DNA from: Catajapyx aquilonaris
Taxonomy: Eukaryota
DNA length: 49,287 nt
Direction of reading: 5' to 3'
NCBI GenBank assembly: GCA_000934665.2
Contig: KZ538760.1
Coordinates: 1-49,287, forward strand
This document shows, piece by piece, positions 1 through 49,287 of the stretch (within the stretch, counting starts at the first letter, position 1; each line of letters starts with the position of its first letter). Position numbers and translations under genes: made by a program. The notes beneath the pieces were generated by a model. That model was not told the DNA's origin. It ran no database searches and worked only from the letters and a program-made list of their open reading frames with translations.

Positions 1-986
1 CCCTGGAGCGCCTGGACTACCTGTTCCCGTTGCTCAGCTGAGTGACAGCCCACCCTAATTCCTGAATGCACCTTGGTGATAGTTTTAAACCCTTGTTAGG
101 TAGGATTCTCTTGTAGGTAGGATTCTAGGGAAACTGTGCAAACATGTGCAACCACATCCAGGAGGCGAGTCACTCCTTTTATTAGCATAGTGTGGGTTTG
201 TGACCTTTAGGTCCTAGCCACACTTTCGCTCAAATGGAATAATGAGTCCATCACAGTAAATCCCCCGGGCATCCTGTATACCCAACGACCCCTGAATCTG
301 ATACACATTCTCACTCCTTGACCACACGTCCTGTACCATTGCGCAAAGTCATGTGAGTCCTGCAGGGTTCTTGCCCTGGGACTCTGACGACATTCACTGC
401 CGGTTCCGACTCAATAAATACTAGAGGATTGTCCACAAACGGGGGCAATTCTTCTGAGCTTGGTTCTCAGTATGTTAGTTGTTAGTGACACCAAGCCAGA
501 AGCCAACCTGAAGACCAGTGACGCCAGACTCTGACGACCGGGTCCTAACCAACCGAGTGAGGTCAGGATCTGAGACATCCAGGGGCGACTACCATCGCTC
601 ATCATCCATAGCCAGGAGGGCCATCTCCAGACGAGACGCCGGCACAAGTCGACTTGGGTGAGATGTCCACACCAGAGTAACCCTGTGACTTGTATAATGT
701 GTTACCTAAATAAACTGAGTTAGTCTGAGACCCTGTGTCCGTTTTGGTTCTGTTCTCCCAAGGAGCTCTCACCATCGTGGGTAGATTCAGAGGTACTATG
801 TCGCTCAAAAACATAGAGACGATTTTGCATTTGACTCAAGTGCAGCCTGCACTTGAATCAAATGCGAATCGTCTCTATGTTTTTGAGCGATATAGTACAT
901 ACGGGTAGGAACCTGCCCAGGTCCTACCTGTGGTAACACTAGCGGCTTACGCCCTAAACTTTAACTAGTTTGCCGCTAGCCTTACA
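1..986 (+). mobile_element. LTR (5' end not seen), diverged relative of the 1388-2268 and 10413-11318 LTR family
   Basis: Ends in CTTACA (981-986). Shares motifs in the same order as the other two copies: GGCGAGTCA, AGTGTGG..CCACACT, AAGTCATGTGA, ATAAATA, GGTGAGATGTC, AATAAA (709-714), TAGGAACC. Confidence 0.7.
793..898. mobile_element. ~105-bp near-perfect palindromic MITE inserted into the LTR
   Basis: GTACTATGTCGCTCAAAAACATAGAGACGATT... pairs with ...AATCGTCTCTATGTTTTTGAGCGATATAGTAC. TA flanks the CTAT..ATAG core. Absent at the equivalent site in the related LTRs. Confidence 0.8.
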
Positions 987-1387
987 ACAGTATAAATTAA
1001 TTATTGCCCATAGGTATTGCACTTATTGGATGGGGGTAATAAGTTAGGTACCTTGACAAATTGCACATAAGCATTATTGCCATTTTTATCAGGTGAACTG
1101 GATGAAATGTACTGCACAAACAGCAGCTAATAGGGAACAAATTATCCAGTACATGCGTGAAACTCACGTGGTGAGGAGGAGTAATAAAGAAAATAAAAAA
1201 ATGACGATTACAGAAATTCTGAGGATCTACCCCCGACTTCTTGATTATGAGGGGTGTCTGGTAAATTCCAGTGAATCGAATATGTTTGTATCTTTGACAC
1301 CAATACATTCTGAATTACTATATTTTCCCAGTACAACCTGAAGTATGTTTGACATGCTGAAAGTGTCGAACAAGAATTTCATGATAT

Positions 1388-2268
1388 TGTTACATTTAGG
1401 GCTAAAACCCAGTTCATTTTCGGCAATTACACGTTCTTCTAACGTTGTGCTGAAAGGGCTCTGACCTGAACTCTATTTAAGGGGGTTTGTGGTAGCATGA
1501 GTGCTCCACATCCTGGGCGAGTCATTCTTCGAACACAGTGTGGATTCATGACCTTTTAGGCTGACCACACTGTTCCCCAACTATTCAGGAAGACCTCATC
1601 TTGTTAGTTTCCCTCTGAGTAGTCAGCGGACCCTATGAACTCGAAATACTGAGAAACATCCTTTTTTCCAAGATCACGTTTCCTGTACATGTACTAAAGT
1701 CATGTGAATCCTGGAGGGCGGTGCTCTCAGGATTCTCACGCCCTTGAACTTCCAGCCTGAGTTCCATAAATAGGGGATGGGTTAGTAGAGAGGGGGCATT
1801 CGGAATTGGAGTCAGTTGTTATCCGGTACAAGTGTTAGTAGTACTTGGCTGTGACCAAGGAACGTGAACTTTTGGGAGGGGAGTCGTTCGGTGGATGTCG
1901 AGGCGGACGAGCATCGGCCACTGAAGACCTGAAGCCCTGACCAGACGTCCTACTCCGAGAAGGACAGTCACCAACCCGTAGACATCGGGACGCCTACCAG
2001 GATCAAGTCAGAGTCGACTAGGTGAGATGTCTACCCAAGAACATGGTTGTAACCATTGAGTGTGTCTGTTAAATAAATACCTGTGTTTGATGCAAACCTG
2101 TTGTTGATGACTCCGTTATTCCATGCTGAGTTCTTTATCCGTTAAATAGATCAGACGGTAGGGAATAGGAACCAGCAGGTTGCCTATTCGTAATAGGTCG
2201 TAGAGGTACGCCCTCAGGCCAAGTTAACTTCAGTTAACTTAATCCTAATTAACTACGACGCTATAACA
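1388..2268 (+). mobile_element. Solo LTR (Gypsy-type), 881 bp
   Basis: TGTTAC...ATAACA termini. 4-bp TSD ATAT at 1384-1387 and 2269-2272. TATA-like ATAAATA, then AATAAA at 2072. A close relative lies at 10413-11318. Confidence 0.9.
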
Positions 2269-2565
2269 ATATCATTTGTGAGGGATGCACCCAAAAATTC
2301 GACATTTGCCAAAAACCACCAACCGGAGATGCAGGACCAGTTGAATAACATTGAAGATGGTAATGGTTTCAATTTTACAGTAAGAGCAATTTTCATTAGC
2401 ACTTATCATTGCAGAGTGTATGAAAGCCATACTTCTGTTGACCGCAATCATCCGGAAGGCCGCGATTGAACGCCGTCAGAGCAAAGGGAACAAGAAAGAG
2501 TCACGTTACTGATGCTTGCAAGCGGATCTCAAGTGTTCAATTATATTTGTGCAGGTAAGAAATAT

Positions 2566-3689
2566 TGTCGGATTTTAATGTCACTACAGTTAATTTGAGG
2601 ATACATACACATATAATTGCAACTGTCAGACGGCCTGCAGGCTTGAGTCAGTACGGTCGTGCTCACTTGGAGCTCCTTTTCTCCCCGCATCTATCCTCTC
2701 ACCAACCGACTCCCCGTTTGACTCTGAAAATCATCTGGTGGTCCTTGTCAGTGCACATTGCTGATACCGTTCCACTATGGAGGGGGTGACAATGGACGCA
2801 ATTCGATCCCTGCTGGATGGTCTTAAAGCTGACCTAGTTGCTGGGATGGACCAAGTCACATGGACTTACGCACGTCCTGGGAGGAGTCACAGCGAGGTAT
2901 GCTCAATGAACTGGAGGACTTAAGAGCCACCACCAACACACTGAGAGGATAAAATACGTTGCTGAAAGCGGAGGTGAGCCTTTTGGGGACACAACTGGAG
3001 GAATATCCCGTCGACTCAACCTCGTCCTGTACGGGATACCAGAGAAGGGGCCGGAAAAATGGGCCGAAACGGAGGTCTTACTCCGCTCAACGCTTCTCGA
3101 CTTCAAGCTGCACTCATCCCCTAGCACTGAATTTCAACGTGTCCATCGGGTGGGGTCTCGTCCTGGACACCACCCCATAATAGCGGCTTTCCTCCGCTTT
3201 TCGGACAAGGACGTCATCATGTCGAACGCCAGAAACCTGAGGGATACGCCGTTTAGCCTGTCCGAGGACTTCGCCATGGCAACGGAGTCACCTAACCACA
3301 AGACCACAAGCTGGGGGATTTGAGAAGAGGCGATCGGACAAATAAAAGGGGAGGACACTGAGAGAAAAGAGGCAGAGTGAAAGGCAGAACGAGAGAGAAG
3401 AAGTGAAGCAGCTGAGACCAGACGAGATGCAGAGAAGACCTGAGGCTGGTACGAGGCCGTGAAGAGGAGGACCAGCCGAAGGCGACCATACACAACATGA
3501 GAGATTGAGGATAAGTGTATTATATGGAAGTGTAAATAAATGTCTGTTTTGTAAGCCTGAGTTAATCAATGTGAGACACCCGTGTAACCTTTCTGGCTAG
3601 ACAAGCAAGTGCTAACAGTCATGTGAGCGCCCCAGGCTCTGGTAAGGGAACATGGTGATCAGGGGATACCAATACAGAGCAACGTCACA
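2566..3689 (+). mobile_element. Solo LTR-like element of a different family, carrying an embedded ORF1 fragment
   Basis: TGT...ACA termini. ATAT TSD at 2562-2565 and 3690-3693. ATAAAAG near 3342, purine-rich R-like tract, AATAAA at 3535-3540. Confidence 0.75.
2860..3285 (+). pseudogene. Non-LTR retrotransposon ORF1p fragment (L1-type coiled-coil + RRM/CTD)
   Basis: Frameshifted translation ..LLKAEVSLLGTQLEE/SRRLNLVLYGIPEKGPEKWAETE../..EFQRVHRVGSRPGHHPIIAAFLRFSDKDVIMSNARNLRDTPFSLSEDF matches the SRRxN-GIPE, RxHR, RPII and ISEDF motifs. Confidence 0.8.
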
Positions 3690-4773
3690 ATATCTTAAAG
3701 AGATACCCTCGATTTGTGGACTTCAATGAATGGGTATGTAGATTGGCAACTCTAGGAAAGAAGCATTCAGATTCTATTCCCATTACTGTCTTTCATAGAT
3801 CAATGATGAATTTGAAAGCATCGTAGGAGACTTTGTGCCTCTCTCTGAGGCTTTCCAAGTAATTCAGGAGAGCCTCCTTAAGCGTGGAAAGTTGCTTCAC
3901 GATAACAGTGCCAAGGAACTGTTACATAACCTGCAAGCCACTGCTCTATAATATAATGAAGGTATCTATACAGTCCTAATGTGAAAGTACCACTATCTCC
4001 TATCATGAGACATTTTTTTGAAATGCATGTTACGAATAAAAATAATTTCTGCAGCAGAAACTACCAGGACATGTGTGATGCTTCTGCCATATCTTCTTCG
4101 TGGTCCAATGAAAAGGAGAATCGATCCGGGGAAAGCTCTCAAGCAAATGTACTTGGAAATTGAGGTAATATGTTCATTGATATTGCTTAATGAAGTTGTG
4201 ATTTCAATATTATAAGTTGGAGCAAAGTCAACTTGTAAGGGATGTAGCTCCGTCAGAGCATATCAACTTACTCATTGCTATATATCTGAATGATTAGAGA
4301 TTCTTGACCTGGATACAAAAATACAGGATAACAAAATTAATTTTTATAGTACTTATTGCCACTGGCTGGTATGAAATATGTGCTCATGTACCTGACAATT
4401 ATTTTTGTTGTCACTGATTATTCGTGTTATTTCTAGGACGGCCTGTCTTTAGAACAAGCTGTGGAGAGGGCCCAAGATGCTGCTGGAATGCTTCAGCCAG
4501 GTCTGATATGCCTCCAGGGGCAGTACTTTGTTGTGGTTGATAAACAAGCCATTTTAATAGACACTGCAAGCACACTATAGGATGGACTGTGCTTCCTCTT
4601 GAAGTGTTTTTACACATTGAATTTGAAGTACCCATCTTCACTGTCCCATGTCTACGCATTCATTGAAACTCTCATGAAGCTGAAAGGTGACAGTGTGACT
4701 AAGGCACCAGCAGTGGTACTGGATTTTCTGCAGGAACTAAAAGGGAGTGCTAAGGGTAAGGAGTGACAACATC

Positions 4774-5134
4774 ATGATACGCTACATTTGCTTGAAAAAC
4801 ATTTCAACCATACCCTCACTTCGTAAACATCTGATATGGCACAGGAACATGGGACAATTATTACATCCAGTAGCATGCAAAGAAAGTGTAAATTGTGCCA
4901 AGACCTTTGCTACAGTTTATAATTACCTGCGACATATTCAGCTGAGTCATGAAATTACCCCCAGATACTTTACTAATACCCTCCAATAATGCAACCCTTC
5001 CTGGAGGATGCAGAAATGTTCATTACCCTCATAATCCACCCAGCACCCAGGAATCAGAAGAAAAATGCAACAATACAGACTCAGTTGAAAATATGCGGAA
5101 GGATATTGTAAGGACCCTACACGGAAGCGAATAA
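4774..5134 (+). pseudogene. N-terminal C2H2 zinc-finger region of a CACTA/EnSpm-type transposase
   Basis: ATG lies 7 bp after the SAMD3-like stop. Reads ICLKNISTIPSLRKHLIWH..CKESVNCAKTFATVYNYLRHIQLSH, then frameshifts. Confidence 0.6.
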
Positions 5135-5171
5135 AGGTGTGACCGTTTTGATTTATTAATTTTCATCTCCA

Positions 5172-5499
5172 TGTCACGGGACCCTCCTTTCTACTGTATT
5201 CTGTATTACGGTATCCTCTCCCCTTCATTTCTGTTGGCTACCATGTTCTGATCTTCATCTGACATTGTATACTATGTATCATACCCACAATGCATTGGGG
5301 TCTCGTCCCTATATAAGACGAGGTCTCTAATCCCTCGAGGCCTTTTGGTCGTTCCCTCCGGGGGAGGCCATTGGCCGTGCCACTCCCTTTTCCTCAACCC
5401 CTTTACATCCTGACGCCCTTGTTGTACAGATCATTAAAGGTTACTATGAGATGAACCCATTTTGTTTTGTGTTCGCCGTTTGGTAACATTTCGGTGACA
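5172..5499 (+). mobile_element. Short LTR (328 bp)
   Basis: TGTCAC...GTGACA inverted termini, TATATAA at 5310, ATTAAA at 5433. No matching TSD or PBS seen. Confidence 0.65.
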
Positions 5500-5621
5500 A
5501 AGGTATATAAAGCGACACGGTGCTGCGGAAAAGGCAACCAGATTGAACGTTCAGTGACTCTCGTGAGTGTGTCGACAAAGAAGAGAGCAAAAGAAAGAGA
5601 GAAGGAGCAGAATGATGCCAA

Positions 5622-5890
5622 TGGAACCAGACGCATTATTTTATGCCAATAGGCAGAGAAACCGAGTGGTAGCAGGGCTACAGGGGGTTGAGCACGCTAT
5701 TACAGGTGTTGGGCGCAAATGGTTGGCCATCGCTAGGTTACTAGACCATATCCTAAAAGCAGTCCGGACCCTCACCCGTCGGGTAGGGGACCTAGAAAAG
5801 ATGCAGGGACGGTACCTAGCGGAAATACCAACCCGACCTAATAGTCGGCTCACATCTCCCATGGAAGGAGTTTTAATTACTGTGGACTAA
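5622..5890 (+). CDS. Small ORF of unknown function, copy 1 (~89 aa, MEPDALFYANRQRNRVV..)
   Basis: Open frame that aligns along its length with the paralog at 6295-6619. TATATAAA at 5504 upstream and a purine-rich leader. Confidence 0.5.
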
Positions 5891-6009
5891 AGACAACTCC
5901 CTCTCAACAGGAGAGCGGGAACTTTTACAAAAAGCAGTAGAGTCAATCTATGTAAATTGAAGGAGTTGAGGATTTTCAGAAGGAGTTTGGAATGTATTAT
6001 TTGTGTGTG

Positions 6010-6172
6010 CAAAATTACTAAGACTTTGAATTTCAAAGAGGGACATGTGGTGGCCGTGTGGTATCCCACCCGGTATGTTAAGAAATCCACGAAATTACTA
6101 CATCAGTTTAGAGGCCCATGTAAGGTAATCAAGAAACTTAGTGACCTCAGCTATGTGGTAGATGCCACGTAG
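6010..6172 (+). pseudogene. Gypsy integrase C-terminal GPY/F module fragment
   Basis: FKEGHVVAVWYPTRYVKKSTKLLHQFRGPCKVIKKLSDLSYVV. Confidence 0.75.
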
Positions 6173-6294
6173 AGTGCGAAAAAAAGCAACCAGAGTGGTT
6201 TTGTCAGTAAGAGGAACGAGAGTAACTAGACCAAGAGCAGGTACGAGAGTAAGTAGACAGAGAGAAAGAGAGTAGAGTCAAAGAAAGGGAAGAG

Positions 6295-6619
6295 ATGGAG
6301 TTCTACTCCAATAGACAAATAAACCGGGTTGTCATTCGGCTACAGGGGATAGAAGATGCCATCAGAGAGGTAGGGCGAAAGTTGGTGGCCATCGCCACCG
6401 TATTACATAGTATCTTTACAACCGTCCGGGACATCAAGAAAAAAAATGGAAACCCTGGAGAATACGCAGCGCCAATTTTTGGCCACAGTACCCACCAGAC
6501 CCCACCGTAGTCTCGAAGTACCGGTGGAGGGAGTTCTGGTACCCATGGATCTGTCCGTCCCCTCCTTCAACCGGAGTGGGGTATTTTCGGACGTGCCAGA
6601 ATCGACATTTTTGAACTGA
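6295..6619 (+). pseudogene. Small ORF of unknown function, copy 2 (~107 aa after removing one A from the A8 run at 6439-6446)
   Basis: MEFYSNRQINRVVIRLQGIEDAIREVGRKLVAIA..VRDIKKK/METLENTQRQFLATVPTRPHRSLEVPVEGVLVPMDLSV.. aligns with copy 1. Confidence 0.55.
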
Positions 6620-8601
6620 GAGATTTGGGTAAACTTGCAGATCTGAGACGTGAAGAGGGGCGTTGAACTCCCCCCAACCACTTTACAGAGGCAGTAGAAT
6701 CAAGATGCAAATTGAGGGAGTGAAAAATATTCAGAAGGATTTGGAATGAATTATTTGTGTGAACAAAATTATTAAGATTTTAAATTTCAGAGAGAGAGAG
6801 GTGATGAATGACCATAATTCAATCCAGAGAGAAGAAAAATTGATAAGGACGATCTGAAGAGGGTCTACGATGGAGAGAACGTCGAGACAAGAAAGGATGA
6901 ACTGGATAAAGGAAACGTGAGTAGAAAACGTTTGACGGGAACTAAGTGATTTTGGCACGGAATTAAAATTTGTGAAGATAACGTTGAAGAGAAAATGGCG
7001 ACTAAAATTTCAAGGGATAAGTTGAGAGGAATAATTCAGTTGTAAGCAAAACCAAGCTAGAGCTAAAATGTGTAGTCAGAGGCTACAAAAGAGAGAAAGC
7101 ATGACACATAATGCCGAGATAGGCATAAACTGAGAAGCGAAGCAATTCGTTAAACAGTATGATAATGTTCGAAAATCATTGCATTAAGTAACAAAGAGCA
7201 AATAGAGACAAAAAGGATATTGAGGATGAAAAAAGGTGTATGCGAGAATAACAGGCATAGAGCTTAAACGTGAACACCGAGGATAATATTTGGAATGTGA
7301 TGTAGGGTGAGGTTCAACAATGGAACCGTAAAAAGCTTGTCTTATGACCCTAATATAACAACGCCGTCATGAACATTTACAATTAATCCATATTGTATGC
7401 CGAAAATACGTCTTAATAGGAGAAATCTACGAAAGTTTTACCTAAGTAGGGTACGGAGATGACCCAGGACATTCGAGAACTAGGAGTTTAAAGGGTACAA
7501 GTACATGAAAACTTGCATGAAGCCGTTTTTGTTTACTTATGTAATGTGCCCTCCAACTCATCGTCATACGTTTGATGACTAACATGATTTTGTTCTAGGA
7601 TGAATTATGTACATAACATAATCTTATTTTCAGTTGAGTAATCACTTGTCATTTACTCAAAATCTTATTAAATCACTCCTCAACTTTACAATAATCAAGG
7701 AGAAGAGTCATTTTAACTTGATAATTTTTGGAGTAATTTAAATTAGCACGTCAGCTGTGACCAGTACCCTGTGAGATAGTGAGAGTAAACAGGATGTGGT
7801 AAACTGATAAACCACAAGTGTGAAGGCGTGATAGAAAAAGTTTGCGTTGAAGCAACACCACTTGCTTGTAATGACAAGCGAGTCAATGAATTAACCAGCA
7901 TCAGTTAGGGTGCAGTTGAATGGTTATTTAACGTAAAACTTATAAGTTATAGTTTGGGCCTCAAAGAATAATTGTTACCAAATGGGTATCGCATAATGCG
8001 GGAGGATGTAGATTTAAAGCAACGACAAAATATAGGCATGGAGTGAAGATTCATTTCCATATGTAATAATAATGACAGGATAACCATATTTTATTCCAGG
8101 CAGTATAAAAGTCTGAAGATGTAACCAGCATAGGTGGCATATACCACATAATGATGAAGCCACTTGTTCAAGGAGATTCTTGAAATGAATAACCAAATTA
8201 TTTTTCAGCAGTTATTAATGATTAACCAGATTTTATAACCATAATTATATGTGATTGACAAGAGTTATTTACAGAAGAGCTGTCAGAATTTTGAGAAATA
8301 ATTGAATTAAAACTTTGGAGGAAGTAATACCATTTAAAAAGAGGAGTAAATCCCTTTGTTAAACGTAAACAAATGTACTCAAAGGTCAGCCAACTGTGCT
8401 GATAAGCAGCTGTGGGATAACACACTAGATCCTACATAGCAGCCGGAGAAAGGGGGTGTTACTAATAGTTCGCATGCAACCGAGGCATTAAAATACACAT
8501 CAACTGATTTGGATGTGGTACAGTAAATCCAATTAGTTTTGAAATATTGAAGTATTGAATTATTGCAGTTAACTGATGCGCGACAGAACTTACTTTGAAC
8601 A

Positions 8602-8826
8602 TTAATAGAGGCACGAGAGGGCCACTTCATACGTCACATCCGACGTCCTTCTTACAATTTCACAAGGTCCTCTGAACTTGTGTAACAATTTGTCTGCCTT
8701 CTTGAGAAACCTGGTCGGATGCCATACCGTACCTCGGTCTCCTTTCTTGAAGTAAAGCATCCTGGGCTTTACATCATAATTTGCCTTTTGCTTTCTCTGT
8801 GCGGCAACAGTGCGGGCTTTGGCCAC
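8602..8826 (-). pseudogene. Gypsy integrase C-terminal GPY/F module fragment
   Basis: AQRKQKANYD..FKKGDRGTVWHPTRFLKKADKLLHKFRGPCEIVRRTSDVTYEV. Possible very degenerate integrase core upstream, to about 9230. Confidence 0.8.
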
Positions 8827-9848
8827 TTCATGATTTAAGCCCCGTTTAATCAGTTTATTCAGTCACGGTGTAAATTCCGTTCATGTGCGTAAGCCATATT
8901 ATATACAGCCATGGGGTAACACGTTAATTTGGGAACCGTATAAGGAAACGTATCGGCGGAAGGGGTCGGATTGCGGTTTCACAAGTGCTCCTCACCAGTG
9001 ATTGTTGACTAATCGTTTTTGCTACTTGCGATACTTGAGGGTCATTGCTCTAAGATCGACAGTCACGTGCGAATTTTCCTCGTTTGACATTCCATAAGTA
9101 ATTTGATAATAGCACTTCGGTGGGATGCAAAAGAGATATGCATTTCCCTGATGGTAGCTTCGTTGTTTTGCGTCAACCCATGAGTTGGTGAGGACATACA
9201 ACACCCTAGGAAGAATCACACCGGACTGGTAGCAACTACGACGAACTCCGAAACGTGTTTTAATGTTGAGGGATGGGCATTGTTTGTTTATATCGATTTA
9301 CGTTTAAATTACCACTTGTTATAGGGGAAAGAGTTCAGGCTTCTCTTGAGCTCGGACCGTTCTGTTGTATGCTTCACACACCGGACGAGAGTGCTCGTAC
9401 GGCGTCTGACTTCACAGTTCGAGTCGCGACGGATGACAGTCGCTGGTAGATGACAATTTTTTATCATGTCCTCATTTGTTTTGGGGGACCTATTTGAGTT
9501 GTTTATTTTTATGTATCATGGGATAACACCTCATTGTTTTGCATTATGCCAGGGGTCTCGCCACACTGCAATAAATGCACATTTGTGTTGGTCACTTAGT
9601 GAGCGAGATCGCTGAAGTTTCAATTATTTTTCTGTTCGTTGGGACAATGTCCTCTGATACGCTGGTTTGGGTGGAGCTGGAAATATGTGGAACTGTAGGC
9701 TACTCTGTGGACGTTATTGGAGCCTGCTTACAGAACTACGTGCGAAGTGTGGTACTGGCGCACCGCTCCTATGTGGTGGTGTCCTCCTGCTTTTCTGACT
9801 TTACCCTTTGAGCCTCGAGGGCGAGGCCTTCTTTTTTGAGGGGGGGAG

Positions 9849-10408: not shown

Positions 10409-10412
10409 ATAT

Positions 10413-11318
10413 TGTTACATTTAGGGCTAAAACCCAGTTCATTTTCGGCAATTATACGTTCTTATAACGTTGTGCTGAAAGGGCTCTGACCTGAACTCTA
10501 TTTAAGGGGGTTTGTGGTAGCATGGGTGCTCCACATCCTGGGCGAGTCATTATTCTAACTCAGTGTGGATTCATGACCTTTTAGGCTGACCACACTGTTG
10601 CCCAACTATTCAGGATGACCTCATCTTGTTAGTTTTCCTCTGAGTAGTCAGCGGACCCTATGAACCCGAAATGCTAAGAAACATTCTCTTTCCAAGACCA
10701 CGTTTCCTGTACATGTCCTAAAGTCATGTGAATCCTGGAGGGCGGTGCTCTCAGGATTCTCACGCCCTTTAACTACAGCCTGAGTTCCATAAATAGGGGA
10801 TGGGTTACTAGAGAAGGGACATTCCTTCGGGGCATTCAGATTCATTGAGAGCACTCTTTGAGAGTCTCTTGTAATCCTGAACAAGTGTTAGCCGTACTTG
10901 GCTGCGACCAAGTGTCGTGTACTTTTGGGGCGGGCCATTCGGTGAATCCATGTGAAGACGAGTCGAAGCCATCGGAGACCAGCAGCCCTAACCAGAACCA
11001 CATCGAGGGAAGGACGGCCATCCAGCCAGAGCCATCCAAGACGAGTACCACCAGCGAATTCGACCATCTAGGGTGAGATGTCGACCAGTGTGTACTGGTG
11101 TACTTGTGATGTGTGGTTGTACAATAAAACCTGTGTTTGATGGAAACCTGTCGTTGAAGACTGTTATTCTCCGCTGCGCTCTTTACCAGTTAAATTGATC
11201 TGACGGTACGGGATAGGAACCATTGCAGGTTGCCTATTCACTATAAGTCGTAGAAGTACGCCCTGAGGCCAAGTTAACTTTGGTTGACTTAATCCTAATT
11301 ATCTACGGCATTATAACA
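10413..11318 (+). mobile_element. Solo LTR (Gypsy-type), 906 bp, same family as 1388-2268
   Basis: TGTTAC...ATAACA termini. ATAT TSD at 10409-10412 and 11319-11322. The first ~400 bp are highly similar to 1388-1790. Confidence 0.9.
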
Positions 11319-11329
11319 ATATGCAATGC

Positions 11330-17015: not shown

Positions 17016-17029
17016 TAAGTTGGAGGCCC

Positions 17030-22209: not shown

Positions 22210-22210
22210 A

Positions 22211-37150: not shown

Positions 37151-37397
37151 GAGGTGCAGCTCTTCTGACTCACTTCTTCTTAGGAGACTTCTTAATCACA
37201 ATGTGCTACTCGTAACAATCTGTAATATGATAATCTGGAGTATTGTCATTGGCATGGTAGGGACGAAACCATATTCACACTTCACGTGTGAGACTTACGT
37301 CCAATACTGTGTGTGGTCTTCCACAGGAGAGGTCAGCGTCCCATCCATGTTTGGTCCCATCTCCATGTATCTTCTGACAAGCAAATAATCAGAAGTA

Positions 37398-37665: not shown

Positions 37666-37689
37666 CTGCATTATCACAAGACACAAAGA

Positions 37690-38680: not shown

Positions 38681-39060
38681 GTAATCTATTATTTCTCATT
38701 GTATGGGTTTCCCCGGCACTATCGACGTGGCCTGTAAGGCCGGAGGGGTGCAAGGTGCTGCGAAACATACTGATGCGAACCCCTTGGATTATCCCTTTTC
38801 TGGGACCAGCTCTAATATTAGCCCTTTTATGGCCGTTTGGCGCCAGGAAGCCTGCATTACATCGGTCCTTTGCCGCTATATTCCCACATGTCAGATTATT
38901 TAGAATAATCACTCTACAACATAGCCACAATATGCCTCATCACATGACTTGCTCATGTAGCACTTGTCCAGAATATCTGCATCCCTCCCATCCATTAATA
39001 TAACATGGATTATAGGATATGTCTCAGCAATGTCTGCAGCATTTGCCATCAGGCTATCCA

Positions 39061-39414
39061 TCAGATCTCAACCACACCACTTATCTTAGGCGTCGTAGGT
39101 TTTCCTGCGTCCATCAACAGATACTGCTCCGGTTCACATTTCTCTAGATACAGCATGTGCATCTTCTTGACTAACAGTTCAGGGGATAGATAGTCATGTT
39201 TCGTGTTGGCCTGGCGACTGTTGTGGGAATGTCTTCTAGGGAAACTCCTGATGTGGTCATCCACATATTGCACCGGATGTTCAGGATTGGCATTCCACCA
39301 ATATCTATGCTTACTTAGTTGGTGCAATCGTGCCTGTGCAGTATATGTAGCGCTGCGAACTTTGCTGGAAATTCCAGTGCCACAGCATGCCTGTACTTCG
39401 AGGACTTTTTCCAA
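39061..39414 (-). pseudogene. Sola1-like transposase fragment
   Basis: VDDHIRSFPRRHSHNSRQANTKHDYLSPELLVKKMHMLYLEKC. Confidence 0.7.
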
Positions 39415-39589
39415 CAGGCTGTCAACGCCAGCTGTTGAAGGAACAGATTTTGACCCCAGATCAATGTTACCTCCATTGAAAATGATCTCTAGTTCAGCAT
39501 TCTTGTAAATAGTGCTGCTCTTGTTAATGATGAGATTAGGTGTTACATGGACAATATAAATATATCTTCATTTCGAAAATAAAACTTGT

Positions 39590-40020
39590 TCCACTGTCCA
39601 GATGGCATCTTAAAATGAGTTGGAAAACTCCACCCTTGCTCTGCTGTCTCGGTTTTTGCTCGAGCTCAGGGAAATATGCTGTCACGTATGGACCGCCTCA
39701 TCTCCAGCAGAAAACACATGGCTTATAGTCGTTTTCTCGGCCCTGATCGCGACCAAACCTGCCTGCCCTTGTCACATGGTCGTTGTAGTAATGCTTGAGC
39801 TTCGCCCACCCCTGCTCGATGGGGTTGTAATAACAATGGTACGGGGGAATCCTGCACACCTTGATGGCCCTCTTTCTTCAGCAACTCATCGATGGCATAC
39901 CTCTGGAAGCGAGGCTTGTGGGGGGGAATAGCCAGAGCGTACAGTTGCTTCTTCAGCAATAATTCACTTCCACCATCAGGTACGGTACCTTTGTTACTGC
40001 ATTATCAAAGATCCGCCAGA
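39590..40020 (-). pseudogene. Tc1/IS630-like DDE_3 transposase fragment
   Basis: LKKQLY..KPRFQRYAIDELLKKEGH/CRIPPYHCYYNPIEQGWAKLKHYY (RLPPYHCxxNPIExxW motif). Confidence 0.8.
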
Positions 40021-40350
40021 ACACCCGAAAGGCAAGGTACCGAGTCGTACAAAAGCCAATGAAGCCACTTTGTGGCTTTCCAGTAACTCCGTTCCCGCAA
40101 TGAGCGAGGTTGTCTTTGAAACTTCTTTGGAACCTCACTTAGCCGAGCCTGCTGCTGAACATTAGGGAAATGGTAACTCTTATTGCATTAGGCATAGAAA
40201 GCAGTTCCAAGCAGCCGCTTTCTCTTTAATTACAAGAACTACAGCATCAGGGAACAGATGAGCGCAACTTGATGGTAGTGACTCATAGTGCCTTCTGTGT
40301 AACCGATATTTTATCGGTTGCTAATAACATTATGAAACGTCCATAGTAAT

Positions 40351-40697
40351 ATTTTTTTATTATTATGTACCCCGTTGTGGGCCCTAAGCCCTATAGGGGG
40401 GTGGCTCACCACCATCAGTTTTCTATGTGTATACACACTTTTCTTCGTACACCGGTGCAAGGAGTCAAGGATGTAGGGTAGGGGAAGGGATTTTTGGGGA
40501 GGGAACGTAAGTGCAAGTGCAATGTCAACAACTGGGTCATGTGCTGTCCCCCAGGAGGTTAGGTTGCCAGACACCTCCTTGGTGCAGGTCAGAGACCCTC
40601 CTGACGCAGGCGAAAGGATAGTTCCCCAGGCGGGGATCGAACCTGGGGCCTTTCGCTCAGCAAGCCGTGACGTTACCATCACGGCCACCACACCTCC
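40351..40697 (-). mobile_element. tRNA-derived SINE
   Basis: Minus-strand head GGTGGCCGTGATGGTAACG..GGTTCGATCCCCG contains Pol III A and B boxes, followed by a ~270-bp body and the tail ATAATAATAAAAAAAT. Confidence 0.8.
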
Positions 40698-40849
40698 ACG
40701 TCCATAGTAATATAAAACTTTTAGCGTCTGGAAAAAAATGTGCGCAGTAACTTAATCGTTGCTGGAGGTCGTAAGGTAATTAATTACTGGTCAAATTTGC
40801 AAATTGTGTGTTTATTTCTTGATGAATTGGATAACCTTGCGTGCGCACA

Positions 40850-41510
40850 TAAAATCGGCAGTTTACGTCTGATATCTTGTTACTGCCTGTTTCACTGGAT
40901 CCAGATACGTCAATTTTAATGCCAGTGGAAAAATTTGCCCTGTTCCTTGTGGCCCAAGTATTACTCTGCTTTTCACTCAAGATGCTTTGGTAGCTCATCG
41001 AAGGCTTTTCCTGCAGCCAGGTGAAGAGAGTGGCAGATACGTCGTATAGCAACTAGGTGAGGAACTCGCTGCTGCAGTAGTGTGGCTACTGAGTGATGAC
41101 TCCTGACCACTCCACACCCCACACCCCGTCCACACCAATCCCCAGAAGCGTCCACATGGAGATTATTTTCTTCTAGAGCCTGTAAGATGACTGACGTCAA
41201 TGCCTACCGTGCCACATCCATCCGGCAATGGAATTAGCCGGTAGTCCTTTTCTTGATCGAGTAATACTTTATCATTATCGCTAGACACTTGACATCTGAA
41301 TTGTCGTTTGATTCATCTAGAATCAAGTTGAAATGCTGATTTCCTACATCCTCAACTAGTTCCTTGTGGAGTTCTGGTGCTATGAACTCCCTTATGAGAC
41401 CGGTGCACTTGGTTCGATGAATTTTAATTTTCTTCAAGACCACAGATTTTTCATCTAGATATGCGACAGTTTCGCCTAGGTGGTCTATTGTTTTGATTGA
41501 AGCCATACTT
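40850..41510 (-). pseudogene. hAT transposase N-terminal/core fragment
   Basis: IDHLGE..IKIHRTKCTGLI..FNLILDESND..KCLAIMIKYYS; HHSVATLLQQ..ICHSLHLAAGKAF. Confidence 0.85.
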
Positions 41511-42299
41511 TGATGTCAGTGTGAGTTCTTCCCTTTGCACACGCATTGTTGTCTCTTCTACTTGAAGGAGGGCTGAAAGCTTTTATTTTGGAGTAGGCTA
41601 TTGTCATCATAATTGTCCCCCCCCCCCCCAATTAGCCTTCTCATGCGCCATTTGTGTGAAAAGTTATACACTATATGCAAGAATTTACATCGACGACATT
41701 CAGCAGGTGATGAAATGGAGGCATCGGCCATCGACTGGTCCTTTGGCCTTGCTTGTATTAGATTAACAATAACCACGCCACCCTCTTGTCTTATTGTAAA
41801 ATGTAATAATGTGAGGCTTTTGTGGGGAGTGAGAATCAGTTGCTCCTGTGGTTTGTGTAGGCCTAGTCCAGATCAATTGACTTTTTTGTTACTTGGGGAA
41901 CCATTGTTACGGGGCCAAAAATACTGCAGCCTACTACTGATTATTTATTTGAACCAATTCCCCACCCCCCTGTCTGACATAATAGTCAGTTTGCCAAATG
42001 TGGCCTTTCCTAAGTTGAATATGGTAAAAAGTGCAGACACTTTGCATAGTAGTCGTGTAAAATATTGAATGTGTTACTGCTGGGTGCATACAAGGTTTTT
42101 GGCCACGGTCAGGGTGGTAGGAGTCTGTGGCGTTGCCGTCCTTTGAGGAAATGCTAGCCATGGTCGGAAGTGATGTTCAGGGTTCGAATCGCACGACCAT
42201 TGCTCGAACCGTTCTCTTCACCTCGTTACTACTAGTGAGAGGAATTCCTCCATACCACTTGACATTGACATCCTATCAGAATCTACTTCGCTACCTGGA

Positions 42300-42710
42300 T
42301 CGAAGTCAGGGTCTTTTGAATCATTAAATGCCTCCAGATCAGATGGATACTGATTTTAGCAACTGGGTCCGGGAACTGCTTCTGGTGTTTCGTCTGCGGT
42401 ACTGGCTTCCAGTAACTCTGAATGGATATGCTTTTCTTCCTCCATATATGGTTGCAGCATTCCATCAACCTTGTTCTGCCACAGCCAACTCCTCCATCTT
42501 ATAGTGCACCTGTTTAAAAAAGATCAAGAAGTGAGAATTCAAGATAAAATTGGTAGGATATTACTACGGATTTTTCACTCACCATTATTAATACCCAGAC
42601 GTTCCATTCCCATCGCTGCTCTCCACCGGTTTCGGGAATTTCCGCAGCACTTGTTGACAGCCCAGGGCAGCTTCGTATATGTTGGAAAGTACTTGTTCAT
42701 CAGTCCTGTG
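42300..42710 (-). pseudogene. Possible SAMD3-like (CACTA accessory) exons
   Basis: QVLRKFPKPVESSDGNGTSGY and VHYKME weakly resemble the family motif, with GT/AG boundaries between them. Confidence 0.3.
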
Positions 42711-43189
42711 GAAATAGGAGAAAATAATCTCCATTAATTGTATACCTATACATTGCTATCTTTGTTTTCAATTTAAAGTTCACATGGTTCCTTTGATATT
42801 TGGTATAGTCCCTATACAATCTATGTTTCAGCACTTGAGAATTGATAATTAAGTGTCTAACAAATGAGGTTACTATAATGACCAAGCCTGCCAGTTTGGC
42901 ATGAAGAACACACACGTTTTTCAGTGTTCTGGTGTAGTATACAGTAACATGTTATCCACTCGTTACTGTACAAATGAAAAGCTGAGATTTATCAATGGTC
43001 CAGATTTTTCCAAAACTGTACCATAATGGCCAAGATGATATGATTTTGGTTTCAGAGTGTCATTAGGGAAGAGTTTCTTAAACATGGTATGACGCTCGCT
43101 TACAAGAGTTCGAAGTAGTTACCCCAACTCCTCTGCAGTCTTCCAGATAAAATTATATCCATGATCTTTCGCATGAGAAGATACAATTC

Positions 43190-44180
43190 CCAGACACTGC
43201 CATGCTGCACAAGGCGCTTTTTTGGGATGAAAAGTCGAGCCACGTGCTGCTCAAGAAGACTATGTATGTGGTCTGGAACTTCCTCATTTGGGTTTCCGAT
43301 GAACTGAAGAGCCTCAGTTGACTCTTGGAATTCCATCCAGTCTTCTTTCTGTGGGAGACGAAGAACAGGCACTTCGTCGCAACCACTGGAGGCATGGAAG
43401 CCCCGCATCGCAACAGCCACATCCTTCCCCAGTTCAATGGCAATTGCATGCGCAGGAATGTAGCGACGATGTTTGGCAGCGTTACCGCATAGTATCCATA
43501 GCTCCTGTATAAGTGAATCATGCGTGCAATATTAGGAACGTTTTCCTTCAACGACTTTGTGTTTGGAATGCCCACCTTCAATCCAAGGTCCTGCAGAAAG
43601 AAGTGTGAAACGGCAAGGACCACAACGTCTGCGTCAGAGGCACGTATCAGTATGCTTGTAGCTCCGTGGAGAACAGCGTCGCGCGCATGCCAGAATATTC
43701 TGGCATCCGCTTCCTCCATGTCTCCGCACTGGCAGCCATTTAAGTTGGAGCTGTGACCAAGGCGACATTTCAGATCATTGCCGACGTTCGTCACAACTTC
43801 AAGATTTGTATTGATCTGAAGGAATGCATTAGCCAGGAAGACAAACTACTCGTCTTTATTCTCAGCGTTTTTGAGGTAATCGTTTCAGATTGGTGCAATG
43901 AGACCTGCAAGAGCATACAACTTCAGTGTTGAGCACAGATGGAGTGACGAACAAATTGGCGGCATGTCACATACCTTTTGTTGGTAAATTATTTCGCTTC
44001 ACTCCCTCCCCCCGATCCATTTGTGTGGCAGATTTCGTGCTGTGTGGGAAATACAAGTCCCAGCGCATATCGAGTCGAGTGGACTTCAGGTTTTCCGCTA
44101 GCTTGTGTCAGGAACCCCTTCCTAAAGGGCCCCTGGCTCAGGAACTACCTCGCAGGTTCACAAAGAACCCGTACAGAGGG
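43190..44180 (-). pseudogene. Intron-containing, probably TE-borne protein with FEN1/XPG(PIN)-like nuclease motifs
   Basis: RLDMRWDLYFPHSTK..RG|..YLKNAENK..FLA..MEEADARIFWHA..ILIRASDADVVVLAV..IPAHAIATELG..FHASSGCD. Contains stops and frameshifts. Confidence 0.7.
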
Positions 44181-44914
44181 TAAGGTAAAAAGATGTATTT
44201 TGTATCACTCCACCGGCCCGCCTACACAACACCAAGGCGGGGCTCGGACTGCCTCACTTTTCCCCTCCACCCCCAAAATGGGGTGCCTCTACACTGATGC
44301 CAGGTTGCGCCCTGTTGCCACATCTGGCAATTTCCCCCACTACACGAAGGACGAACAGACAGCTGTTCGAGATCGTGACCCTTGGCTCTCATACCCTCTG
44401 GAAAGAAGCACCAGCGCAGCGACGACAGTGACAGGATAACCACAAAAACAACGACAAATGAGAAAAGAAAAGAAAAACTGATCCCACCAACAAAACACTA
44501 CCGAGAAATCGCACGCGCAATTGGGGACAGATCGCTGGCCCTTCGATGTAATATGTAATTTGTAATGTAATACGCACAGGGAACAAAAATGATCTGAACT
44601 TTCACCTAGTGTGTTAAATGACCACTTTCAAATGCACACAAGAGGACCAGCAGGGTTATTGTGCGCGTTAGGGACGTGACATGAAATGCGCACCCTTTTC
44701 GGAGGGGGGTCACAGTATCTGAAATTCCTGCGAATTATGTGAGGTTATGATCCTTTCTCAGGCAAGGATCACTGCAAGGCCAGTGTGTTCGTATTCATAA
44801 TGGACTTACTAGTAACTTACAAGAATTGCCGCTGTTGTACTTGCATAGGTGTTTCGAATTCACGGCTGGTCGCGGACGAGGAGGCGTCTTCAGGAGGTGC
44901 GATCCCCTAGAACA

Positions 44915-45130
44915 TCTGGCAGCCGTAGTCAAGTGTACATGTCATTCCGATGAGGAAGTCCGTGCCCAATATCGCGGGGTGGAGCGAGGTCTACGAGGAA
45001 CTTCTTCCTGATACCTTCACAATCAGGTGGACGCTTCCCCAAGGCCGGATACGGCTTTGGTCCGCCATCGTCAACTGGGACGTTGTTCCGGTGTCGACGG
45101 AGGGTCGCGTGTCCCTCCTAATGCCGAGAG
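44915..45130 (-). pseudogene. Retropepsin (Gypsy-type aspartic protease) C-terminal fragment
   Basis: LTMADQSRIRPWGSVHLIVKV..AILGTDFLIGMTCTLDY. Confidence 0.65.
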
Positions 45131-45139
45131 CATTAAGCA

Positions 45140-45796
45140 GGATCAGCTTAACAGATTACAAGACACTTAAAGATATCTTCACTACAAAGAAATAAAACTC
45201 ACTTTCCAAATTGAAAATTATTTTGCTATGGATCTCCCTCTTTCCCACATTCGCCTGCTTGCAAACTTGAGGAACAATTCGCAAGTCCTTCGTGTCCAAA
45301 GTCAGCTAGCGATTAACCTAAATGATTCAGAAAAATGTGATTGGTGTAACTGGTCCACAAATCGCTCTATCTTTCACCTAATTTATGAATGTCAACTATT
45401 CAATTCACCAAGAAGAAAATTCCTATCTAATCTTCCAAAATTCCCTCCTGATCGGCTGTTTTATTTATTTGTCGAAACCCGGATGATGGATGCGTACAGG
45501 TACCTACTATATTCTTTCTTCCTCGCTGCAGTTAAAATACTAAATTTTTGTGATTATTGAAGTTGATAGTAACTTTCTTCAAAAGACTGAGGTGCTAGTC
45601 ACCACTGCTGCTGGTATGATGTCCTCTTTTCTTTTTTTGTAAGCACACATTATTGCAACTCTGAACTTTTGTCCAAATAGTGTCAAATTTATTATGGAAG
45701 ACAATGTATTAATATGTGTAGTGAGTGGATGTCCCCCCATACGAGCCTATGGCTCGCAACACGGGGCTGACAAATAAATAAATAAATAAATAAAAT
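45140..45796 (+). mobile_element. 5'-truncated LINE 3' end
   Basis: LLANLR..CDWCNWSTNRSIFHLIYECQLF..R..LPKFPP..FF..LNFCDY, stop at 45560. UTR hairpin CGAGCCTATGGCTCG, then an (AAAT)n tail. Related to 14085-14652. Confidence 0.8.
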
Positions 45797-46094
45797 ATTT
45801 CCGTATAATATCAATGTTACGTTCAATGCTAAGACGCAACAATGCATTGGACACCACTGCATTGCGGTTTTGATATGGGCATCCATCACTCCATAAAAGC
45901 AAGGTCTTGACATTCGGATCCTTATCACAAACTGTACCTAGGAAATCATAGACTCTCTGTCAAACCTAGATCTGTATTTTGCATGTATCACATGTAAGCC
46001 TGATTCAAAAATGAAAAGTCAAGAAAAGTAAAAAAGATGAAATGAAGGATGTAGTTTTATTAATAAAATCATCCGTTATAATACAAGGACTTAC

Positions 46095-46325
46095 TTGTCT
46101 GGGATAGAACACTTCAGTCGCTGCGAGTATTGGTAAGGGCTGGTTCTTCTGACAATCAAAGCAGACAGTGATTGCATTTGCTGGATTTGTTCGCAACAAC
46201 CGGTAGAACTCCCTCGCTCGAACTTTGTGTACATGTCTATGTAGACGTATTTCCTTCTTCTTCTTGCCATCCTTCGCTTCTTTCTCTTGCTTTTGCAAAC
46301 TTTCACAATAGTAGCACACATCTGT
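46095..46325 (-). pseudogene. Sola1-like transposase exon fragment
   Basis: CYYCESL..HKVRAREFY..VCFDCQKNQPLP..VFYPRQ followed by donor GTAAG. Confidence 0.75.
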
Positions 46326-46329
46326 TCGC

Positions 46330-46911
46330 GGATTGCTGCGGCTCTTCGTCGTCTATATTCTCCTAGGATCTTCTCCCGTACCATACCAGCATGCCCACAG
46401 TCAAGTCTTCTTCTGCACGGCACTCCAACGCTGTGATGAGGACTCCATAACTTCCAGGGAGGTTCCCAAGCAACATTCCGATCCGAAAACGGTCAGTCAC
46501 CGGCTCTCCAACAGCGATCAACTTATCCACCACTGACTCGACTTCATGGAGTAGAACTTGCACGTCTCCATCCTCCCCAATCTTCATATTTGCCAGCCTG
46601 GTGTACATATGGACGGTGCTGGACAGGGTGGCCCTCTCGTGGTGTTCCTTCAGGTTGTCCCACGCCTCTCTTGCGGTACGGGCAGGTCTTGTAAGTACGT
46701 GCTGACTCTGCTCCACCAACAACCCAATGGTACCAATCGCCTTGCTGTCAGCATTAACCCAATACTTCTTGTTACCGACAGCGGGTGCAGGGTTAACAAC
46801 CGCGAACCAGGTATCTTCCCGCCTCAACATCAATTCTGCCTCATAATTCCAGGACTGGTAGTTGTCATTGTTCAGCTTCACAATCGGCAAGCGTGCAAGG
46901 TCAGCCATCAC
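46330..46911 (-). pseudogene. gag: Ty1/copia gag fragment
   Basis: KLNNDNYQSW..L.REDTW..W..ADSKAIGTIGLLVE..TAREAWDNLKEHHE..L..GE..LLGNLPGSYGVLITALE..LT. Confidence 0.9.
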
Positions 46912-47239
46912 ATGTTATATAGCCTGCTCTATTCGATGATGTAGTGACATTTATTCATTTGTACAGGGTGACTCACTAACAGGAGGCCCCGAGGTATCAT
47001 TTCCTACACACATAATATAACTGTTTACCCAATATGAAAGATGTAATATTCTTGTACTGAGAGAAGCCATCCTTCTCACCTTGTCCAGCCCAGTTCAATT
47101 TCACGGCAAACTCTGGCTTGCATGGGCCCTTAGGCAGTTTCATTCAGGGGACCCTCTCCCCTTCCACGCCCTTCCCCAATCTGCTAAAAAAAAAACCAAT
47201 TTTCAAACACCAGTGGGGTTTATTTCTTTCAATCTACGA

Positions 47240-48350
47240 GAGGGTAAACTTTCTTGCTTTTCTCATTGCAAATTATTGAATTGCCTCTTGGAAGTCAATA
47301 TTTTTGGCAAGTTCATGTTCAATGGATAGCATAGCCAAATTAGTCAAGCGAATGTGGGTCATGGTGGATCTCTGATAAGTTTGGATCAACTCTAGTTTGC
47401 TGAAGGATCTCTCTGCTTCGGCCACCGTCCCCGGAAGGGTACAAAAAATTCTCAGAGCAATGAAGACCTCTGGGAAGACCCCTTCCAATTTTGCAAATGC
47501 CTCATCTGTTCAACTAAATCACTGGAAAGATTTCACAATACAGTCACTTGCGTGGATCTGAGGAGCTGGATATCTTCCTTCCTGAGGTCCTTCCTTGGCC
47601 TGCCTGGCTCGAGAGAATCCACCATAAGCGCCATTTTCAGAGCAGGGTATCGACAACTCGTGCTACAGCAATCGTTTTCGACCAAGAGCATAGCTCCGAG
47701 TCACATTGTTCACATTGATTCCCTCTACCTCTTCGCACTTTTCAAATATTGACTGGGATTCTTCATCCGCATTTTCTGTCGCATTCTGACCAGAATTGTA
47801 ATGATGACTTCTGCATGCGAAATGGAAGCTGCAAGGTCATAATGTGTTGATTGTAGTTTTCTACTCAGAGGTAAAGTGTAGCTCATTAGCTTCTCTGCTG
47901 ACAGCAGAGAAGCTATGAAGTTTGGTTGCTGTAGAGCACTGAGTAGAACACCAGCACCACATGAGGCATCTCTTTCTTCCCACTGCAGAATGGTGCAACT
48001 GGGCCATGACCATCACTGCCTCATGTCGATCTACTTTTCCCATCTTGTAGGGCAGAGCTGCTTCTACTTTTTTTGTGTGTATGAATCTGGAGCAATCTCT
48101 GCAACTTTCTTCTGCAAAATTATATGTCTCTTTGGTGCGTTGAAAAAGTAATATAGTTTCCGTACAGTATCGAAACAGTTCCTTACGGAGGTTACGTCGG
48201 AGGAGTCTGAGATTGTTAAATTTAGACTATGGGATGAACAGTGAACGTCAAGAGCTTTTGGACACTGCAGAGATATATGCCTGTGCGCCTCTAAATTTTC
48301 ACTCATTGATGCAGCGCCATCATAACCCTGACCTCTTAAGGAAAGTAGTA
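47240..48350 (-). pseudogene. hAT (ZMYM1/Tip100-like) transposase remnant
   Basis: LRGQGYDGAASMS..PKALDVHCSSHSLNL..LYYFF..PKR; FPEVFIALRIFCTLPGTVAEAERSFSKL..TYQRSTM..RLTNLAMLSIE. Confidence 0.9.
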
Positions 48351-48498
48351 TCTGCCTCGCTCTTTCAGTCCACGAAGAAGAGTTTCTGCTAAATTCTTGC
48401 CTGTTGTTGACTCTAAAGGCATACACTGCAGAAAGTTTTCCTGCAGAGTATATCCTTTCTCAATGTCTTATTTAACGTAGCTAAAACAGATCCTCACT

Positions 48499-49287
48499 TT
48501 TCGTACGTCCCCCACCACCAGCCTCTGCGTGGAGGCCCACGAGCCCCCTCTGGCCCTGCGGAGGGAGCTGCTCGCCCTCCGATACGCGGCCAAGATAAAG
48601 TCCCTTCCCGACCATCCGGCACACGGCTGCATTTTCCATCCTGCCTACGTCGAAGTGTACGACCGGAGGCCCTCTCTGGTCCCCTCCTTCGGCGTGCGGA
48701 TGCAGCGGTTGCTGGACAGGCTCGGGCTGGACCTGAGCTGTGTGGCCGAGTTCACTGGCCCACCTGCCCCTCCTTGGGCCCTGGTGGACGTGGACTGCTG
48801 CCTGGCACTCTCCGGGAATGCCAAGGCCGACACAGCGGACATCGTTTACCGCATCCTCTTTGCCCAGCTTAAGAGCACACGATACAAGGACTGGGCCCAC
48901 GTGTACACCGACGGATCCAAGTCGGCGGACCACGTGGGTTGCTCTTTCGTCTGCTGCGGAGAAGCTCACTCTGAGTCCCTCCCCGCAGCATCCACTGTTT
49001 ATACGGCTGAGCTCCAGGGCATCTCCAACGCCCTGGAGCACATCCGCCTTGCCGGACACGCCCGCAGCGTCATCTTCTCGGACTCTCTGAGTTCGTTGAC
49101 GGCGCTGCACTCCTACTCCGACGGCACCCACCCGGTGCTGTCTTCTGTTATCCAGCGCCTCCAGCAGCTGGCTCTGCTGGGAGTGTCTGGGAGTTTTTGT
49201 TGGGTTCCGGGGCACGCGGGCATTCGGGGCAACGAGTTGGCGGACGAGGCAGCTCGCACCGCCTCCTCCCCCCGTGCCCAGGGCTGC
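48499..49287 (+). mobile_element. I-group non-LTR retrotransposon ORF2 (tether + RNase H), 5'-truncated, runs off the window
   Basis: Uninterrupted frame FRTSPTTSLCVEAHEPPLALRR..PPW..VYTDGSK..TVYTAELQGI..IFSDSLS..WVPGHAGIRGNELADEAAR. Confidence 0.9.

Follow-up and report, generated by a model that had tools for sequence, protein, structure and literature searches.

A field of decayed transposon fragments with opposed strand leans in a Catajapyx aquilonaris scaffold

Results

The stretch examined here, positions 1 to 49,287 of Catajapyx aquilonaris contig KZ538760.1 (assembly GCA_000934665.2, forward strand; hereafter the window, 49,287 bases), is transposon-derived as a whole, a field of old, broken fragments. 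A preliminary description had reported a mirror-image strand bias among these fragments, + on the left and - on the right, and had read it as a candidate cluster for PIWI-interacting RNAs (piRNAs) transcribed outward from a promoter zone at 24-31 kb. The opposite lean of the two sides was reproduced in direction but not in strength, with 11 of 15 tool-supported coding fragments following it versus the 31 of 35 claimed. We give a probability of about one half to an ordinary graveyard of old transposons, co-oriented within each arm to a modest degree and largely by chance. The one firm remnant of the strand claim is the AT skew, mirrored between the arms and changing near 22-23 kb.

Strand orientation of the transposon fragments

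In the left arm, where 17 of 19 coding fragments had been placed on the + strand, 5 of the 7 supported by a search tool lie there, and in the right arm, where 14 of 16 items had been counted on the - strand, 6 of 8 do; both leans stand, at a smaller magnitude (Table 1). Fragment strands were assessed with a scan statistic in which break point and direction both float. It gave p = 0.58 for the 11/15 tool-supported fragments and p = 0.048 for 18/22 after the addition of seven fragments recognized only by eye, from their motifs. All seven fit the arm rule (+ on the left, - on the right); they are unconfirmed candidates, which we take to be ORF1p-like 2910-3320, 11358-11723, DDE-like 16682-17029 and Harbinger-like 21853-22299 on the + strand and, on the - strand, 36887-37195, 39064-39567 and 46008-46352. 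Pfam supported none of the seven, and the three of them searched against PDB gave no relevant match; for 39064-39567 a word-based search was also without a match, and its Atlas score of 0.89 is a lead only. Since the orientation pattern is one selected out of a very large scan, in which a p of about 0.05 would be expected somewhere by chance, the significance of the larger set is presumably weakened further.

The lean differs between element classes. Among the seven retroelement fragments, three follow the arm rule (those starting at 5891 on +, 13911 on + and 46366 on -) and four break it (8605 on -, 15977 on -, 45213 on + and 48481 on +), the two left integrase fragments (5891 and 8605) being in mutually opposite orientation. 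No antisense enrichment of gypsy/endogenous retrovirus (ERV)-type or other retroelements was thus found among these seven. It had also been stated that several families (hAT, Sola1, Sola2 and ORF1p) occur on both sides in opposite orientation. Confirmation was obtained for hAT alone; the statement fails for the C terminus of the non-long-terminal-repeat (non-LTR) elements, for which 13911-14441 and 45213-45554 are co-oriented and constitute the single cross-arm protein match detected by self-tblastn. The candidate Sola open reading frames (ORFs) had no Pfam family. Counted irrespective of content, ORFs of at least 100 aa are clearly asymmetric between strands on the left (16 vs 9) and evenly divided on the right (17 vs 17).

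A mirrored AT skew with a switch at the first assembly gap

On the + strand, AT skew in 1-kb bins is positive in 17 of the 23 left bins and negative in 14 of the 18 right bins. Its change point, tested by sign-flip permutation without recourse to the annotation, was significant at each bin size (1 kb, p = 0.0006; 2 kb, p = 0.003; 3 kb, p = 0.017; 4 kb, p = 0.024). The sign switches at ~22-23 kb, that is, at the first gap, and the skew of the center sides with that of the right arm. A few bins (0.16, 0.22, 0.15 and 0.28) contribute most to the left-arm skew.

The sense strand is A-rich in 11 of the 15 fragments, and a large share of the skew can accordingly be put down to the orientation of transposons. 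Of the four fragments that break the rule, three (15977-16246, 45213-45554 and 48481-49287) nevertheless share the + strand AT skew of their neighbors, with sense-strand skews of -0.29, -0.09 and -0.14, whereas the fourth, 8605-8862 on the - strand, has an AT skew opposite to that pattern. With the skew persisting in unannotated sequence and rule-breakers carrying that of their neighborhood, some regional asymmetry is probably real.

The two arms are the outer contigs of a scaffold

The window holds two runs of N (Table 1), besides one N at 12364, which makes it a scaffold built of three contigs. The boundaries of the two arms of the preliminary description coincide with these gaps, and the arms are the two outer contigs. 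A 36-nt inverted repeat (23060-23095 and 23382-23417) encloses the 251-N gap, beside poly-C runs, and the assembly break there probably fell inside a foldback element or one bounded by terminal inverted repeats (TIRs). In the center, palindrome 26999-27568 consists of a Tc1/mariner-like transposase fragment duplicated in inverted orientation, with a match to Sleeping Beauty transposase at E 0.018. If transcribed, the central palindromes would fold as long hairpins.

An origin of the arms as an ancient inverted duplication was considered and rejected, self-blastn and self-tblastn having revealed no inverted arm-to-arm similarity. The lone inverted match is a pair 81% identical (23558-23872 and 35196-35501) that joins the central contig to the right arm.

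Contigs from sequencing run X1 (of undefined kind) were placed over 29288-49287, where they covered 14 of 30 bins, chiefly at 31.3-38.6 kb and 40.0-41.3 kb. This run, the only one obtained in a search with 31164-41163 that gave no RNA data set, contained 0.25 of the words sampled from that segment; its contigs are uninformative as to strand, and none of those placed on 29288-49287 spans a gap. Word depth in these contigs was 74-176 at 39960-41293, a segment that includes the 41-kb hAT fragment, versus 0-33 elsewhere in 29.3-49.3 kb, and in the X1 data 39960-41293 looks like a repeat of high copy number.

Repeats described as long terminal repeats

Six long terminal repeats (LTRs) had been assigned to the + strand. 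Self-blastn shows three direct-repeat pairs, most likely the items meant, and the assignment is not borne out. Direct repeats give relative orientation only and cannot place LTRs on the + strand; moreover, the main pair (1384-2272 and 10409-11322), the only one whose ends were inspected, begins ATATTGTTA and ends TAACAATAT, a TIR rather than TG..CA. No reverse transcriptase (RT) or protease domain was detected by Pfam between its members. With a TIR at both ends, they are two copies of a non-autonomous DNA element, and their identity as LTRs was rejected, as they have no TG..CA ends. A second direct-repeat pair sits within a tandem duplication (5.6-6.2 kb and 6.3-6.8 kb). This duplication, of ~700 bp, pairs 5567-6169 with ~6253-6806 at a protein identity of ~49% by self-tblastn and includes the integrase SH3 piece and an ORF without a named family.

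Identity of the coding fragments

Across both strands, 449 stop-free ORFs of at least 51 aa were compared with Pfam at E<=0.01. Sixteen of them gave matches, 10 to transposon domains and 6, all sub-threshold, to unrelated families, the latter being about the chance yield of 449 tests. The curated cut-offs were passed by only four of the ORFs scanned (MADF, copia gag, hAT dimerization domain and RNase H), and no host-gene domain was found in the set. Reading stops as X in six frames over 1-8214 gave no match beyond the known SH3, and a similar read-through of seven candidate regions on both strands yielded a transposon family in none of them beyond the known weak DDE_3. Relaxing the threshold to E<=10, for the first 150 ORFs only, added one match, Dimer_Tnp_hAT (0.15) at 17738-17944.

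The 12603-13185 ORF has no Pfam match itself. It has 165 homologues at E<=1e-3, and two of these matched Pfam RAG1 in the part that aligns with it (P0006 at E 1.6e-9, above cut-off, and P0004 at 2.1e-4). Homology to the RAG1 recombinase core places the fragment with the Transib (RAG1-like) transposases, and it may be one that had earlier been read as Sola. The Transib-type homologues, ~650-720 aa in length, occur widely in insect genomes, where they are unnamed; many have a precomputed PF26100 assignment, a family not given by our own Pfam comparison.

By their homology to BED, DUF659 or DUF4371 sequences and the dimerization domain, the fragments at 17.3-18.1, 38.1-38.7, 41.0-41.5 and 47.3-48.5 kb are classed as hAT transposases. 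The left one has six homologues, 58-74% identical, with PF05699 or PF14291 (Pfam confirmed on P0272 and P0276). The 38113-38670 hAT had 7249 library matches at E<=1e-3, and zf-BED, DUF659 and Dimer_Tnp_hAT are present in its relatives (Pfam tested on P0121 and P0126). Dimer_Tnp_hAT was matched above cut-off at 47276-47509 on the - strand (3.5e-10), and P0276, which is the longest of the left hAT's homologues, has a further match at 48040-48339 on that strand (tblastn 1.3e-4). The right-arm hAT pieces overlap in protein coordinates, which makes them three separate copies. That the C-terminal half of the left hAT and the N-terminal part on the right were one element split by an inversion was rejected: the middle part lies beside neither piece, the identities to P0276 are 58% versus 31%, and undoing such an inversion would leave the mirror in place.

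The segment 17337-17711 is 72-74% identical in protein to ant-named sequences (P0271; P0276 at 58%), which is high for a decayed fragment and may indicate that the source is an arthropod or that this hAT lineage spread horizontally. The 230-aa ORF at 43156-43845 had no Pfam family. A poly-T run at 14905-14920 could be the poly-A tail of the 15977-16246 fragment.

Other features of the window

The GC content of the window is ~45%; its CpG observed/expected ratio (o/e) is 0.63, with TpG/CpA in excess. Neither tRNA genes nor Rfam families were found in scans of the window, and a tandem-repeat scan of it gave no result relevant to the strand question. One tandem repeat, with a 67-bp unit in four copies 99% identical (37398-37666), is far younger than its surroundings.

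Table 1. Contigs, gaps, repeats and coding fragments of the window
Feature	Position	Strand	Evidence and remarks
Left contig (left arm)	1-23120		Decayed transposon fragments; 5/7 tool-supported coding fragments on +; AT skew +0.047
TIR-bounded repeat, copy 1	1384-2272		~900 bp; 81% identical to 10409-11322, direct orientation
LTR-retrotransposon integrase C-terminal SH3	5891-6169	+	Pfam SH3_Tf2-1 E 4.8e-4, below cut-off
Second integrase C-terminal SH3	8605-8862	-	Pfam 4.8e-6; tblastn 1.5e-15 to 6020-6160, other strand; breaks left-arm rule
TIR-bounded repeat, copy 2	10409-11322		Same ~900-bp repeat as 1384-2272
Transib-type (RAG1-like) transposase, C-terminal third	12603-13185	+	Profile of homologues E 1.7e-62 and 7.9e-17
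Non-LTR reverse transcriptase, C-terminal region	13911-14441	+	zf-RVT 3.7e-3; tblastn 2e-13 to 45213-45554
RNase H-like fragment, weak	15977-16246	-	RVT_3 2.9e-3, RNase_H 0.024; breaks left-arm rule
hAT transposase (DUF4371-type), C-terminal half	17337-18120	+	tblastn 2.5e-64
MADF DNA-binding domain fragment	18622-18852	+	Pfam 2e-6, above cut-off
Assembly gap	23121-23371		251 N; poly-C and 36-nt inverted repeat at flanks
Central contig	23372-31118		Three palindromes, Tc1/mariner-like fragment, GC-rich stretch 28-29 kb; AT skew -0.031
Central palindromes	25900-26236, 26999-27568, 29369-30140		Arms 88%, 77% and 90% identical; near-perfect, all inside 4.3 kb
Assembly gap	31119-31163		45 N; poly-C and poly-G at flanks
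Right contig (right arm)	31164-49287		Decayed transposon fragments; 6/8 tool-supported coding fragments on -; AT skew -0.051
hAT transposase (BED/DUF659-type)	38113-38670	-	tblastn 2.8e-53; profile of 40 homologues 3.4e-77
Tc1/mariner-type DDE_3 fragment, weak	39701-39877	-	Pfam 7.9e-3; 0.07 with read-through
Second hAT on right (DUF4371-type), N-terminal part	40976-41500	-	Pfam DUF4371 2e-3; tblastn of P0276 1e-18
Multi-copy eukaryotic family, 230-aa ORF, element class unassigned	43156-43845	-	Atlas 0.95, 30 matches, all unnamed clusters
Non-LTR RT C terminus	45213-45554	+	Self-tblastn 7e-14 / 2e-13 to 13911-14441; breaks right-arm rule
Copia-type gag	46366-46914	-	Pfam Retrotran_gag_2 6.2e-27, above cut-off
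Third hAT on right	47315-48464	-	Collinear pieces 48369-48464, 48022-48246, 47315-47485; profile matches
Non-LTR RNase H region, open at window end	48481-49287	+	Pfam RNase_H 5.4e-13, above cut-off; breaks right-arm rule

Discussion

We favor, at roughly even odds, the reading of the window as an ordinary transposon graveyard. It would be a mosaic of ~20-25 insertions that arose independently and are now truncated and frameshifted (hAT, Transib, Tc1/mariner, MADF-bearing, copia, gypsy-like and non-LTR), and the opposite lean of its arms would most likely be the chance co-orientation of few insertions, each several kilobases long and with a compositional skew of its own. By-eye counting of non-independent pieces would then have enlarged the apparent bias. 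Retroelements would be expected to carry a selected bias, yet only three of seven follow the rule, which we count in favor of a graveyard. The content, the strands of the fragments, the skew and the gaps are observed; no function need be assumed, and that the strand asymmetry has none we infer.

Several observations weigh against this reading. The polarity switch of the AT skew is significant even with 4-kb bins, and with the 15 fragments masked the skew remains in the ~33 kb without annotation (left, +0.043; right, -0.043). The arm rule is followed by all eight DNA-transposon or unclassified fragments, including the three independent right-arm hAT copies on the - strand. A CpG o/e of 0.63, read without a genome background for comparison, would be compatible with a transcribed unit methylated in the germline. 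Our annotation is also insensitive, Pfam being without many of these families, and the higher counts given earlier may be nearer the truth. As to the agreement among cut-and-paste elements, a bias confined to them fits neither a piRNA-cluster nor an intronic model well, and with n=8 and a post hoc split by class it may be due to chance.

What defines a piRNA cluster is small RNAs together with a precursor transcript; in the sequence of the window, the strand bias is the sole support for such a reading. The window would then be a piRNA source locus, consisting either of two outward-transcribed uni-strand clusters or of one cluster with a mis-oriented contig, with most of its fragments read antisense, which we consider unlikely. 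The direction of the bias is as it would require, in 11/15 tool-supported fragments and in 18/22 with the by-eye items, the fragments are dense and of many unrelated families, as in clusters, and the mirrored AT skew would make the proposed outward transcripts T-rich. Both uni-strand clusters and bidirectional pairs have been described, from mouse, planaria, fish and slug (PMC11615739) and from diverse insects (10.1101/2025.09.05.674496). The strand bias among tool-supported fragments is, however, not significant (p = 0.58); the skew switches at the ~22-23 kb gap, outside the 24-31 kb zone proposed for the promoter; and the center consists of transposon fragments and palindromes with nothing recognizable as a promoter, no eukaryote-suited promoter test having been run. 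Flamenco-type loci are defined by single-strand piRNAs with antisense insertions of gypsy or other LTR elements, and known uni-strand clusters are characterized by gypsy, BEL/pao, copia or long interspersed nuclear element (LINE) insertions in antisense (10.1101/2025.09.05.674496). Loci of this type, from the Drosophila soma and similar in mosquitoes, bees and crickets, resemble the window in spanning tens of kilobases with fragments of many families, mostly co-oriented per block. They differ from it in that the window, known from its sequence alone, shows its bias in hAT, Transib and Tc1-like elements; its LTR and non-LTR fragments fit the rule in just 3/7 cases, whereas antisense retroelements define the known uni-strand clusters (10.1101/2025.09.05.674496). 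Bidirectional pairs such as the mouse pachytene loci likewise show a central region with a block on either side, the blocks being opposite in polarity; they are recognized by piRNA polarity and a shared promoter, whereas in the window the center is transposon debris with palindromes and the switch lies in a gap. Pachytene clusters are, besides, transposon-poor. Less probable still is a divergent source of piRNAs or small interfering RNAs (siRNAs) directed against DNA transposons, in which hAT, Transib and Tc1/mariner elements would have been trapped antisense and retroelements left unoriented; hairpins of the three central palindromes might contribute further siRNAs to such a library. Dual-strand clusters or heterochromatic graveyards, such as Drosophila 42AB, share with the window nested, decayed fragments of many families and few genes, but their insertions lie in both orientations (10.1101/2025.09.05.674496).

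The strand asymmetry could also have arisen if the arms lay inside host transcription units, such as long introns of one or two genes or long noncoding RNAs, where selection acting against insertions in sense orientation, or transcription-coupled mutation, would give both bias and skew, an account we find as doubtful as a piRNA locus. A TA skew of ~0.05, comparable in size with values reported for human introns, speaks for it, and a CpG o/e of 0.63 would fit invertebrate gene-body methylation. Antisense bias of intronic transposons is well attested in mammals (PMC3517506, PMC1794541, PMC3088655), and there, too, insertions are co-oriented over tens of kilobases without any small-RNA function (PMC3517506, PMC1794541). 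Intronic bias is moderate, though, and chiefly concerns LTR and LINE insertions in introns, while the window has no detected exons and host-gene domains in none of its 449 ORFs. That bias is strongest for LTR/LINE elements (PMC3517506, PMC1794541), of which 3/7 fit the rule here; and the sign of the GC skew in the window is opposite to the mammalian transcription-coupled pattern. Alternatively, the mirror may in part be an assembly artifact, with one outer contig mis-oriented and a true locus of uniform bias or none of note. The switch of polarity falls on the 251-N gap (23121-23371), a gap marks the second boundary as well, the flanking homopolymers and inverted repeat make scaffolding across the gaps difficult, and the only homologous pair across the arms, the non-LTR C termini, is co-oriented instead of mirrored. 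Against this, the specific gap sizes of 251 and 45 N suggest paired-read scaffolding, which would usually fix orientation, and a flipped contig would account for the mirror but not for co-orientation within each arm; we regard the artifact as improbable. A regional mutational strand asymmetry, arising, for example, if an origin or terminus of replication lay near 22-23 kb, with the coding-strand lean coincidental, would explain why three of the four rule-breaking fragments carry the AT skew of their neighborhood and why the skew extends into unannotated sequence. It is at odds with the fourth, 8605-8862 on the - strand, which runs contrary, and with the A-rich sense strand of 11/15 fragments, whose orientation would by itself be expected to give much of the skew, and we hold it to be very improbable.

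As an ordinary graveyard, the window has a cautionary value: orientation counts made by eye overstated the bias, repeats that are not LTRs were called LTRs, and the boundaries of the arms were assembly gaps. Should the window be a piRNA locus after all, it would be a cluster spotted from raw sequence in an unannotated genome, with an unusual bias toward DNA transposons, and it would add another case of the cluster types already known in many animals (PMC11615739).

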